Notes: a model not told the origin generated them from the letters alone. A stretch of 3,437 nucleotides of DNA from Escherichia coli (GCF_003334815.1 NZ_QOWO01000082.1); one strand, 5' to 3'. Positions 572 to 3,437 are shown, numbered from the stretch's first letter. Translations and numbers: made by a program.

Positions 572-1423
572 TCAGACTCGTGGCGGCAATGCACCAGGAT
601 AATACCGTGCAATAACATCATTCAGTTTTTCAACAAGGTCAGAACGCTTAAAGACAATGTGTACGGTCCCTTTCTGGTAGCCACGTACCGTAAAATATTC
701 CCCTTCTAACAGCTTACCGACATTGTCGCCGTTCCCGAGAAACTCACCATACTGCGCCCCGATGCTGCTCCGGAAGTCAGGAACGTTGCGCCCCTCCAGC
801 AGATAAAACGGACGTACCAGGTCATCCAGTGCCTCCCTTCCGCTGCAGTCCAGCGTCACACGCCCGTTACTCCAGCGGTACAGCAGGTTTTCAATAATGA
901 TTTTCTTGCCCAGACGGCAGGGATTGTTGGTTCTGTAATCCCATGACAGTTTCCTGTAGACATCAATCAGTCCTTGTTCAAATGTCTGCATCTTACTGGC
1001 ATTCAGATGGCGAAAAGTTGCCAGTACATTGTCCAGGGTGATTTCAGGACAGGTGTCGCTCATCAGCTGGCTGTTCCACTCATCACGCTGGCATGAACTC
1101 ATGAAGGTGTACATGCCCGTATCTGTCATCAGGCGGTCCCAGATTTTCCGGTCGGCAAGACGGGTGATATTCCTTTTCGCTTCTTCCGGCTTATCCATGC
1201 GACGAACGGAATCAGTCACGCAGTCTTCAAACCCGTAAAGAAAAATATCACCTGACGCATCGAGCAGAATCTTGCGCGCTGTCGCCAGGCATTCCATCGC
1301 CTGCATGAATAGTGCAATACCTTCGTTACGCTGCGCGATGATGCGGTCGATAGCCACAGACGGAATAACATCTGTCGTGCCGGCAGTATTCAGGTCAGCA
1401 GTGGGTAAAGTCTGATTCATCAC
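572..1423 (-). CDS. Conserved hypothetical protein, 283 aa, function unknown
   Basis: Long uninterrupted frame (852 nt) on the - strand with GAGGAG (complement of 1428-1433) upstream. ATG at 1420..1418 gives ~8 nt spacing and is an equally plausible start to GTG at 1423..1421. Ends at the shared terminator. No nucleotidyltransferase, methyltransferase or nuclease signature recognised by eye. Confidence 0.75.
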   Translation of the reverse strand: MMNQTLPTADLNTAGTTDVIPSVAIDRIIAQRNEGIALFMQAMECLATARKILLDASGDIFLYGFEDCVTDSVRRMDKPEEAKRNITRLADRKIWDRLMTDTGMYTFMSSCQRDEWNSQLMSDTCPEITLDNVLATFRHLNASKMQTFEQGLIDVYRKLSWDYRTNNPCRLGKKIIIENLLYRWSNGRVTLDCSGREALDDLVRPFYLLEGRNVPDFRSSIGAQYGEFLGNGDNVGKLLEGEYFTVRGYQKGTVHIVFKRSDLVEKLNDVIARYYPGALPPRV

Positions 1424-1440
1424 ATTGTCTCCTCATCGTC

Positions 1441-1890
1441 ACGACTGCCGGGTCAGCCAGGTCATTTCCCGGAGGAGCGAAGCTCCTTCTGCCGTCCGGG
1501 TCTTAGGGTATTTCCCCGCAGTGGACCTTTCCGACGGGGGACGCTCACCACGTCACGGGGCAGTTGTCCGGGGGCAGACGCAAAAGTTTTTGACGCCTGC
1601 GGCAAAAAGTTTTGTGGCTGGTACATCTCTCCCCTGGACGACTGAAACGGGATGTGGTCGTGTATGTACCCCCGGAAAGTCCGTCTGCGGAGAACAGGCC
1701 GCAGTGCGGCGGCAGACAGGCAGAGACAGCTGCGCCATCAGGCGCAGTGGCCTTACACACCGTCAGGTGTGCAGGGAGCGCCGCATCCGGCGCGACTGGA
1801 GAAAACCGACGGCACAACAACGGCATGCGGTGGTCACTGGTACACCACTCCCGCACAGGTGAAAACAGAGAAAACAGCACGACATCCATA
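1441..1890. other. GC-rich, apparently non-coding spacer containing a series of short perfect GC-stem hairpins; candidate structured RNA or DNA element
   Basis: Hand counts give roughly 55-70% GC per 60-nt line versus ~50% in flanking genes. All three + frames and two - frames are open simultaneously (stop-codon depletion from GC richness, not coding). Hairpins: 1471-1489 (loop GAA), 1685-1704, 1730-1747 (7 bp, loop ATCA), 1756-1771 (6 bp, loop GTCA), 1778-1793 (6 bp, loop CATC). Confidence 0.4.
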
Positions 1891-1900
1891 ATCAAAAAAA

Positions 1901-1999: not shown

Positions 2000-2251
2000 A
2001 TGACCGGCTGGGAACTGCGAATCTGGCGAAAAAGCATGCTCTGGTCACGCGAAAAAGCGGCCAGAGAATTTGGCGTGACGCAGAGAACATGGCACGCCTG
2101 GGAAAATGCGGAACAGGTGGACGTCACCGTCTGGAGGACCACCCAGGCTCTTTCAGTCCGTGACCTGCTGCCTCACATGCAGGGGATGCGCAAGGCAGAT
2201 ATCATCAGGCGTCTGGAAAATGAACTGGGGGAAACGGCAGGGAATGTGTGA
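2000..2251 (+). CDS. XRE-family helix-turn-helix DNA-binding protein (83 aa), YiaG/HigA-antitoxin-like
   Basis: ATG 2000 preceded by AGGTG (1991-1995); stop TGA 2249-2251. The N-terminal segment GWELRIWRKSMLWSREKAAREFGVTQRTWHAWENAE matches the XRE-type HTH pattern (LS..ElA..lGVs..Tv..WE) seen in HigA/YiaG-like regulators. Confidence 0.75.
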   Translation: MTGWELRIWRKSMLWSREKAAREFGVTQRTWHAWENAEQVDVTVWRTTQALSVRDLLPHMQGMRKADIIRRLENELGETAGNV

Positions 2252-2262
2252 GCGTGATTCAC

Positions 2263-2283
2263 AGCCTGGCAGAATGCCAGGCT
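2263..2283. other. Hairpin (8-bp stem AGCCTGGC / GCCAGGCT, 5-nt loop) between the convergent HTH gene and the orphan small ORF
   Basis: Perfect inverted repeat overlapping the stop codon (TAG, 2284..2282) of the - strand small ORF. No U-tract, so it may be a transcript-stabilising stem or weak terminator. Confidence 0.3.
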
Positions 2284-2488
2284 ACTGCTCATCAGGAAAC
2301 AGCTTTTTCAGTTCTTCACCGGAAAGTCCCGTGACCTCCTGAATCCGTTCCGGCGGCCAGCCTATATCCCGCAGCCGGCAGGCTATTTCCCGCGCCACTT
2401 CAAGAGCCCCTTGTTTAAAACCTTGTTTAAAACCTTCTTTAAAACCCTCGTCGAAACCTTTCTGTATAAGACGTTCTGCAATCGTCAT
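2282..2488 (-). CDS. Orphan small protein (68 aa) paralogous to the C-terminal tail of Rpn nucleases (RpnS-like), with tetrapeptide repeats GFDE-GFKE-GFKQ-GFKQ
   Basis: Its first residues MTIAERL are identical to the internal segment MTIAERL of the upstream Rpn protein. The remainder follows the same pattern (KG...ALEvAreIA...g..pEqIqe.TGLS.EELKK). Nucleotide similarity around the ATG: 2470-2488 vs 2681-2699 is 17/19 identical. The SD is weak (GGAG ~13 nt upstream) and an intrinsic terminator lies just upstream, so expression is uncertain. Confidence 0.55.
   Translation of the reverse strand: MTIAERLIQKGFDEGFKEGFKQGFKQGALEVAREIACRLRDIGWPPERIQEVTGLSGEELKKLFPDEQ
2411..2458. repeat. In-frame 12-bp tandem repeat, 4 units (TTGTTTAAAACC x2, TTCTTTAAAACC, CTCGTCGAAACC), encoding the GFK(Q/E)/GFDE tetrapeptide repeats
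   Basis: Two identical adjacent 12-mers, a third with one mismatch and a fourth diverged, all in codon register on the - strand. A substrate for slipped-strand copy-number change without frameshift. Confidence 0.85.
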
Positions 2489-2510: not shown

Positions 2511-2537
2511 GCAAAAAGCCCGGCATTTTGCCGGGCT
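2511..2537 (-). terminator. Rho-independent terminator immediately downstream of the Rpn gene (- strand)
   Basis: On the - strand: AGCCCGGCA-AAA-TGCCGGGCT (7-8 bp GC stem, 3-nt loop) followed by TTTTT. It starts 13 nt after the rpn stop codon (2552..2550). Confidence 0.65.
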
Positions 2538-2549
2538 GTGATGCTCTCA

Positions 2550-2699
2550 TCAGTGAATGACTTTTTTCAGTTCAGCTTCGGAAAGTCCGGTGGCCTGCTT
2601 AATCTGCTCAGGTGTCATCCCCATTTTCTGAAGCTGACGCGCAATGGCAAGGGCTTTTTCAAGCGCACCTTTCTGCTCAAGACGTTCTGCGATTGTCAT
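2550..2699 (-). CDS. Putative intragenic small protein (49 aa, RpnS-like) translated from an internal in-frame ATG of the Rpn gene
   Basis: Internal ATG at 2699..2697 in the rpn frame, preceded by GAGGAT (complement of 2706-2711) with 7-nt spacing. Product would be MTIAERLEQKGALEKALAIARQLQKMGMTPEQIKQATGLSEAELKKVIH. Consistent with reported intragenic antitoxins of Rpn nucleases (from memory). Confidence 0.45.
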   Translation of the reverse strand: MTIAERLEQKGALEKALAIARQLQKMGMTPEQIKQATGLSEAELKKVIH

Positions 2700-3428
2700 C
2701 AGTTTATCCTCATGCTGCGGCAGGCGCTCGGCCAGCGCCCGCATAAATTCCGGTGATACAGAGTCCCCTGCGTTAACGATGTAATGAATCAGAACACGCA
2801 CCTGCTCGTCTGAAATTTCCACCATGACCTGCGGGAGTTTGTCCAGCAGCTCCATCATGTCACGATGGCGGATATGCTTCATCAGCAGCGTCAGTGCGGC
2901 CATCCGGCGATGGTTCATGATTTCATTGTCATCAACGACAGTGATATCAACCAGCGGAAACGGCTTTGTGTATATTTTAGCCGCAAGTGACGGATTCTCA
3001 AAACAGTCCAGCCAGTTCATGCTGTACGGATACGGGCTGCGCTCACCATGATAGAACAGCACCGGAATCACCAGTGGCAACGTTTTGTGCTGCTCCAGAT
3101 GTCTCTGCATCGCCGCCACACTGTAACGTAACATGCGGAAAGGCATGTACAGATTTTCGGTGCTCTGGTGCTCGATGAGCGTATAAACATAGCCATCTTC
3201 ACCCCCGGTGGTTTTCACGCTCCAGAGGATATCGCTGGCGTACTGATGCAGGTCCGGCTCAACAAAGGTGGCGGGTTCCAGCTTCAGCGTGGACAGGTCG
3301 CACAACTGCCGGTACTCCGCCGGAAGATGCAGTTCCAGAAAATCTCTGGCGACGTCGGGATTCGCCAGGAACGACCGGAACGCGGCATCATGCGGCGTGG
3401 GCGTTGTGGTGTTTTTCTTCTTACTCAC
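2550..3428 (-). CDS. Rpn family recombination-promoting nuclease / YhgA-like putative transposase (PD-(D/E)xK nuclease), 292 aa
   Basis: N-terminus TPHDAAFRSFLANPDVARDFLELHLP and the core DILWSVKT...YVYTLIEHQS match the YhgA/Rpn family (Pfam Transposase_31-like) as I recall it. The C-terminal tail ...AERLEQKG...TGLSEAELKK is the typical Rpn tail. GTG start at 3428..3426 with GGAGG (complement of 3433-3437) 4 nt upstream. Gene is complete, but its promoter lies outside the window. Confidence 0.9.
   Translation of the reverse strand: MSKKKNTTTPTPHDAAFRSFLANPDVARDFLELHLPAEYRQLCDLSTLKLEPATFVEPDLHQYASDILWSVKTTGGEDGYVYTLIEHQSTENLYMPFRMLRYSVAAMQRHLEQHKTLPLVIPVLFYHGERSPYPYSMNWLDCFENPSLAAKIYTKPFPLVDITVVDDNEIMNHRRMAALTLLMKHIRHRDMMELLDKLPQVMVEISDEQVRVLIHYIVNAGDSVSPEFMRALAERLPQHEDKLMTIAERLEQKGALEKALAIARQLQKMGMTPEQIKQATGLSEAELKKVIH
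2706..2711 (-). promoter_or_regulatory. Internal Shine-Dalgarno (GAGGAT) inside the Rpn coding sequence, serving the internal ATG at 2699
   Basis: - strand reads GAGGATAAACTG-ATG; AGGA lies 7-8 nt upstream of the ATG, which is near-optimal spacing. Confidence 0.4.
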
Positions 3429-3437
3429 GGTTCCTCC

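Follow-up and report, generated by a model that had tools for sequence, protein, structure and literature searches.

The gene-within-gene layout considered here is already known, both from the Rpn family and from a sister allele at the same plasmid locus (Zhong et al. 2023, PMC10400941). Small proteins were shown there from all five rpn genes of K-12, and RpnS translation, neutralisation and phage defence were demonstrated on RpnA, RpnB, RpnC and RpnP2 (PMC10400941). The small protein RpnA-S was abolished by the combined substitutions K240R+E241D+M244L (Zhong et al. 2023, PMC10400941), and mutations of the ribosome-binding site (RBS) or the start codon abolished the small protein for RpnA as well as for the Rpn of C. 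difficile. Purified RpnA-S directly blocked cleavage by RpnA-L in vitro and co-eluted in complex, while the block of toxicity and SOS induction by RpnS proteins was specific to the cognate pair (PMC10400941). An L2S2 complex was reported for Rpn, and the number of 4-aa repeats was found to determine which partners are cognate. Concerning RpnP2, RpnP2LS protected against T-even phages, and the variant RpnP2L* was strongly toxic and clonable only under a repressed promoter (PMC10400941). Free-standing RpnSs genes, together with fusion and loss events, were described in the same study (PMC10400941).

The window analysed here, i.e. the whole stretch of 3,437 nucleotides of Escherichia coli DNA (NZ_QOWO01000082.1), carries on its minus strand an rpn open reading frame for 292 aa (Table 1), which begins with a GTG codon preceded by GGAGG at 3437..3433. 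Residues 11-207 of the product matched Pfam Transposase_31 with E=2.7e-78, TIGR01784 scored 168 bits (cutoff 52.1), and by these matches the product is an Rpn/YhgA-type PD-(D/E)XK nuclease (Pfam PF04754, TIGR01784, COG5464). The catalytic positions D14, D66, E86 and Q88 are present in this full-length protein (RpnL) and invariant in a 25-sequence alignment; positions 14, 66, 86 and 88 are also those targeted in the RpnP2 active-site mutant (Zhong et al. 2023, SI). The NCBIfam equivalog model for RpnA (NF007361) gave 331 bits for the window RpnL, below its cutoff of 583, which by sequence makes the protein not RpnA itself but an RpnP2-type paralogue. In a plasmid 99.9% identical to the window rpnL carries a PGAP annotation. 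No PADLOC model matched the window Rpn protein, the 2023 library being without coverage of the Rpn system, and Rfam returned nothing above threshold in the window. Some Pfam matches on the rpn tail (Raf1_HTH, SAM_SMF) were discarded as too weak and generic.

The original prediction held that a Shine-Dalgarno (SD) sequence and an ATG inside the rpn frame would yield a 49-aa protein that is exactly the C-terminal tail of the nuclease, and this layout was confirmed in the sequence. GAGGA is followed by a spacer of 7 nt (TAAACTG) and an ATG that is in frame with rpnL and shares its stop codon at 2552..2550, the product being MTIAERLEQKGALEKALAIARQLQKMGMTPEQIKQATGLSEAELKKVIH. The interval of 2550-2712 that had been given for this arrangement was correct overall but ended one base too far, as GAGGA begins at 2711. 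No special RNA structure was found around the internal rpnS start (z=-0.11).

Table 1. Features of the window, with positions counted from its first nucleotide.
Feature	Position	Strand	Evidence
DUF4942 gene	572-1423	-	
83-aa helix-turn-helix gene	2000-2251	+	palindrome repeats immediately upstream
free-standing RpnS-like gene (RpnSs type), 68 aa, begins MTIAERL	2282..2488	-	ORF, NCBIfam, PGAP
terminator-like hairpin AGCCCGGCA-AAA-UGCCGGGCU, then U-run	2513..2537	-	RNA fold -26.5 kcal/mol, z=-3.4
rpnL, full-length Rpn nuclease (predicted toxin), 292 aa	2550..3428	-	ORF list; Pfam, TIGR01784, PGAP
rpnS, nested in-frame ORF, predicted 49-aa antitoxin, C-terminal domain of RpnL	2550..2699	-	phmmer, AF2 model, Foldseek
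internal initiation codon ATG (M244)	2697..2699	-	invariant Met; ATG in 79/79 orthologues
Shine-Dalgarno GAGGA of internal start	2707..2711	-	sequence; AGGA columns as K-12 rpnA; codon-biased conservation, 79 orthologues
PD-(D/E)XK nuclease domain, residues 11-207	2808..3398	-	Pfam; D14, D66, E86, Q88 conserved
approximate recombination breakpoint in rpn, near 2868	2860..2875	-	AO714 gBlock alignment
candidate internal promoter TTGAGA-16-TAAAAT, 10/12	2974..3001	-	consensus scan
44-aa ORF in +1 frame inside rpn, strong SD-like GGGGGTGA	3068..3202, starts near 3196/3190	-	duplex energy -9.9

Taken by itself, the SD of the internal start in the window is statistically unexceptional. Its duplex energy with the anti-SD (-6.1 kcal/mol) is tied for third to fifth place among the 47 candidate start codons of the window rpn, and synonymous resampling of the six codons upstream of the internal ATG gave an equally strong or stronger SD in 14% of draws. 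The earlier statement that such an SD is unlikely to occur by chance thus fails for the window alone, whereas it stands comparatively, across 79 orthologues. As the single-sequence tests were not significant, we relied on the comparative data.

Conservation of the internal SD and ATG in orthologues, which the original prediction had put forward as a check, was assessed on 80 loci for orthologues with 52-94% identity, taken from Enterobacterales and a small number of other genomes, 79 of which retain the internal-start region; many of these loci are Pantoea paralogues, and the counts are therefore not phylogenetically independent. The codon homologous to the internal start is ATG in 79/79 orthologues. 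The residues encoded over the SD vary (H-E-D, H-G-D, H-K-E, Q-E-V, H-E-E, H-G-E), and despite this variation the GGAG/GAGG core is retained, 5-8 nt before the ATG. Where codon -4 encodes Glu it is GAG in 32/32 cases and GAA in 0/32, compared with 42% GAG elsewhere in the same genes; where it encodes Gly it is GGA or GGG in all 46 of 46 cases and never GGC or GGT (0/46), compared with 27% GGA/GGG elsewhere in the same genes. Overall, a purine-rich codon occupies position -4 in 78/78 sequences against a background of 27-42%, and the codons neighbouring the SD core show free synonymous variation. Among the 79 genes 96% of the internal-start sites reached a dG of -5.5 or lower, compared with 4% of the remaining in-frame Met codons; in 67/79 the internal start ranks first by SD among the in-frame Met codons. 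At the protein level M244, T245 and A247 are all invariant in the 25-sequence alignment; only one of 120 protein-cluster representatives has Leu at the M244 position, and there the codon is TTG, a usable start, with GAGGA retained.

The 44-aa reading frame in the +1 frame served as a useful negative control for the rpnS site. With GGGGGTGA and an ATG at about 3196/3190 it has a stronger SD (-9.9) than the rpnS site, and a comparable out-of-frame SD and ATG in this stretch occurs in 6/79 genes, namely the window, its near-identical copy L003 and four others with a different offset. Not being conserved in orthologues, it was rejected as a second nested gene and attributed to chance.

Comparison of the window RpnL with K-12 RpnA revealed 53% identity over 291 aa and an alignment without indels around the internal start, in which AGGA occupies the same columns in K-12 rpnA (CAC AAG GAG AGT TTA ATG) and in the window (CAT GAG GAT AAA CTG ATG). 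Residues 1-45 of the 49-aa tail aligned in a phmmer search with residues 1-45 of PDB 7TH0 (RpnA-S, 49 aa) at E=4.6e-6. An AlphaFold2 model of the 49-aa product, built on a 25-sequence alignment, reached a pLDDT of 76 with predicted helices at 3-25, 30-37 and 41-47, and 7TH0 was the top Foldseek match of this model (prob 1.00, TM 0.83/0.87, rmsd 1.1 A). The 49-aa product is thus predicted to fold as the RpnA-S three-helix bundle. Matches to designer PPR and repeat proteins in the PDB (E down to 1e-16) were rejected as artefacts, these being sums of weak repeats with individual E-values of ~80-150, and the single-domain match to 7TH0 was taken as the meaningful one.

The locus itself was identified with the help of the primer table in the bioRxiv version of Zhong et al. 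2023. Primer AO733, which covers the rpnP2 start, matches the start of the window rpn exactly; AO738 matches exactly at 2449-2470, inside the downstream small ORF; and in the plasmid with 99.9% identity the 40-nt upstream arm of AO739, from the rpnP2 deletion in ECOR13, matches in full (40/40) immediately before rpn. The RpnP2L* gBlock AO714 differs from the window by one mismatch in its first ~189 nt and diverges thereafter. These exact and near-exact matches led to the conclusion that the window locus is the same plasmid locus as rpnP2 of the ECOR13 plasmid, and the window gene, on this comparison, a natural allele of it with a recombined C-terminal third: 5' of the breakpoint the nuclease-domain part is essentially identical to rpnP2, while the linker and RpnS (~105 codons) on the 3' side belong to a different allele. 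Translation of the gBlock (...LPQH SDTIL TLAERLKQE) shows that RpnP2L* changes HEDSIM to HSDTIL, the homologous motif in the window being HEDKLM. Applied to GAGGATAAACTGATG of the window, this design would correspond to E240S/K242T/M244L. The RpnA alignment columns, the rpnP2 locus and the 7TH0 fold thus agree with the nested toxin and intragenic antitoxin organisation of Rpn genes that had been suspected from the sequence.

For the window, our assessment draws on the anatomy of the site, its nucleotide conservation, its homology to validated sites, the match in fold and the identity of the locus with rpnP2. Considering these data together with the predicted structure and the characterised relatives, we regard it as very probable that translation does start internally at the ATG of position 2699, and that the gene would act as a one-gene RpnL/RpnS toxin-antitoxin and antiphage module. 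In such a module GAGGA would recruit ribosomes, probably on a shorter transcript in addition to the full-length mRNA, to give the 49-aa RpnS, whose sequence is exactly that of the three-helix domain at the C-terminus of RpnL (292 aa). RpnS would dimerise through its long first helix and bind the identical domain in RpnL, and the resulting L2S2 complex would suppress the activity of the toxic DNA endonuclease RpnL. Once freed by phage infection or a comparable condition, RpnL would carry out abortive or defensive DNA cleavage. RpnS translation, complex formation, antitoxin activity and phage defence are ascribed to the window allele by analogy with RpnA, RpnB, RpnC and RpnP2. The free-standing paralogue downstream starts at exactly the same Met, so that the rpnS segment does exist as a translation unit of its own. 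The promoter-like site TTGAGA-16-TAAAAT at 3001..2974 is shared with the RpnP2 gBlock, and by the same scan it is absent from K-12 rpnA and most orthologues.

The same conservation might be explained by the protein alone, with M244 and the purine-rich codons maintained as a helix N-cap or domain boundary and no small protein produced from the window allele. Such a constraint would be compatible with the invariance of M244, T245 and A247 as well as with the finding that the window SD is obtainable in 14% of synonymous resamples, but the persistence of the GGAG/GAGG core across changing amino-acid contexts (KE, ED, GD, EE, EV, GE) is hard to explain in this way. Together with the one-sided codon choice, by which 0/46 Gly codons are GGC or GGT and 0/32 Glu codons are GAA, and with the homologous sites of RpnA and RpnP2 that were shown to initiate, this renders a pure protein constraint highly improbable. 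We give next to no credence to a small C-terminal fragment arising through proteolysis of full-length RpnL instead of internal initiation, an option that could be raised for any such fragment, as RBS and start mutants lost the small protein in RpnA and in C. difficile Rpn (PMC10400941), and as a conserved, codon-biased SD would then have no role.

A further explanation accepts that the small protein is made and assigns it a main task other than neutralisation of the nuclease, as a helix-turn-helix (HTH) DNA-binding autorepressor or as a sensor of a phage factor. The fold matches that follow 7TH0, HTH proteins such as the Trp repressor and the IstA HTH at weak E-values, point in this direction, as do the name of the domain in the current Pfam (HTH_Rpn_C, PF27070) and the observations of Zhong et al. 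2023, who note an HHpred relation to HTH motifs and suspect a phage factor behind the repeat variation. We nevertheless consider such a main function quite unlikely in view of the block of RpnA-L cleavage by RpnA-S in vitro and the cognate-specific block of toxicity and SOS induction by RpnS (PMC10400941), and a regulatory HTH role is a possible addition to the antitoxin role, not a replacement for it. Internal initiation of an antitoxin thus remains our preferred reading of the rpnS site.

Across the plasmid alleles of this locus the RpnS tails have lengths of 49, 53, 57, 61 and 69 aa and differ by 4-aa units, RQEG/RMEG or IQQG, inserted after residue 10; orthologue tails are mostly of the form 49+4n (49, 53, 57 ... 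89 aa). The window RpnS is the minimal form without an extra 4-aa repeat, like K-12 RpnA-S.

Directly after the rpn stop codon lies a terminator-like hairpin, which is also contained in the ECOR13 deletion primer AO740, and behind it follows the free-standing 68-aa gene. NCBIfam matches this ORF to Rpn C-termini, and some records carry the PGAP name 'RpnC/YadD family protein' for it. Over its first 33 nt it shares 85% identity with the beginning of the internal rpnS, and 12-nt tandem repeats at 2409-2446 (TRF period 12) encode 4-aa units of the type GF(D/K)(E/Q). A well-spaced SD was not found for this gene; AGGAG stands 15 nt upstream. Across ten alleles the downstream ORF measures 56-76 aa from the Met of MT(I/L)AERL, and the number of its repeats varies without relation to that in the internal RpnS. 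Given the other repeat type, the independent repeat number and the position in the leading region, the 68-aa gene may not be a spare antitoxin for the adjacent RpnL. It might instead be an orphan antitoxin which, during conjugation, disarms Rpn nucleases belonging to the recipient or to rival plasmids, an anti-defence idea raised because orphan antitoxins have been noted in leading regions (PMC11541004), or a donor cassette for tail swapping, which would recombine via the shared 33-nt MTIAERL start and thereby exchange the specificity tail of rpn; we put these functions forward as doubtful speculation.

Several plasmids show rearrangements in this region. In plasmid pHB42-5 (NZ_CP104082.1, L091), at 386-1560, the window-type tail (EQKGRQEGRMEGALEKALAIACQL...) forms the downstream free-standing gene and rpn itself has a tail of the IQKG/IQQG type; by sequence, RpnS tails appear to move between internal and downstream positions. 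In L084, L086-L088 and L091 an indel near the T-run of the terminator, corresponding to window 2547-2552, puts the hairpin region in frame, and the downstream ORF is annotated in these plasmids from an ATG that overlaps the rpn stop (TGATG). The extended ORFs correspond to 'RpnC/YadD family' proteins of 78-97 aa with an MR(T/A)xxPGKMPGFF leader. This extension is probably an annotation artefact; the TGATG overlap could reflect translational coupling.

As to its distribution, the whole window matches about 2000 plasmids in PLSDB, with 99.9% identity to an IncI-gamma/K1 Salmonella plasmid in whose leading region it is situated, with nikA/oriT on one side and ardA-psiB on the other. The rpn module adjoins nikA/oriT and has the same orientation as ardA, psiB and psiA. 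At a coverage of at least 80% the locus is present in 1334/5426 complete E. coli genomes, about a quarter. Many IncI1 plasmids in PLSDB contain additional DNA (~1.2 kb) inside the region covered by the window, which splits the match in two (4.66 vs 3.44 kb) and is annotated with pndC in some records.

Within the window, two copies of a palindromic sequence, AAAGTGAA-n-TTCACTTT, are located at 1896-1918 and 1965-1987, both being part of a 44-nt direct repeat (1888-1931 / 1955-1998). Located upstream of the 83-aa helix-turn-helix gene, the palindromes look like candidate operator sites for autoregulation. Upstream of the DUF4942 gene, a GC-rich non-coding stretch of ~560 nt (1424-1900, minus strand) folds as single-stranded DNA into a long imperfect hairpin at roughly 1501-1693 (-95.9 kcal/mol, z=-3.1) and may be a leading-region single-strand promoter or an ssi-like element. 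No support was obtained for the long ORFs listed in the 1424-1900 stretch.

As nested RpnS antitoxins, among them that of the plasmid locus in the window, have been on record since 2023, our findings carry little weight as a discovery. Their practical value lies in annotation: the locus is common, and the nested rpnS ORF appeared as a separate feature in 0/12 annotated records examined. The invariant ATG and the GGAG/GAGG core, held by one-sided synonymous choice, provide an annotation signature for automatic calling of RpnS starts.

Compared with the known systems, the window gene shares with K-12 RpnA the length of 292 aa, the internal start at M244 and the small protein of 49 aa. The internal SD of K-12 rpnA is AAGGAG and encodes K-E, whereas the SD residues in the window are E-D; moreover, K-12 rpnA is chromosomal and the window rpn plasmid-borne, at 53% overall identity. 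With RpnP2 it has in common the flanks, the position of SD and ATG (HED-x-[LI]-M), the downstream hairpin and the free-standing small ORF. RpnP2-type alleles, represented by loci L089 and L090, differ from it in their RpnS tails, which comprise 57-69 aa with IQQG repeats, in contrast to the 49 aa without an inserted repeat in the window; identity between the window protein and RpnP2-type proteins is ~79-82% overall and 63% for the RpnS tails. Among the plasmid alleles of the window locus, helix 1 varies in its count of 4-aa repeats, as Zhong et al. 2023 reported for Rpn.

The arrangement of the 68-aa gene recalls rpnE-ypaA, where ypaA/RpnESs, like RpnCSs, is a stand-alone RpnS homologue (DUF4351), and here, too, such a homologue with variable 4-aa repeats is positioned directly downstream. 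Unlike known RpnSs genes, it lies behind a terminator-like hairpin and is without a well-spaced SD, and the repeats in helix 1 of its product (GFKE) are of a different type from those in the internal RpnS. Outside the Rpn family, Cas11d within cas10d (cited in PMC10400941), as an example of other genes-within-genes, resembles rpnS in that an in-frame internal start gives rise to a C-terminal fragment and this fragment binds the protein made from the whole gene; the cas10d and Cas11d products cooperate, whereas in Rpn the short product inhibits the long one.
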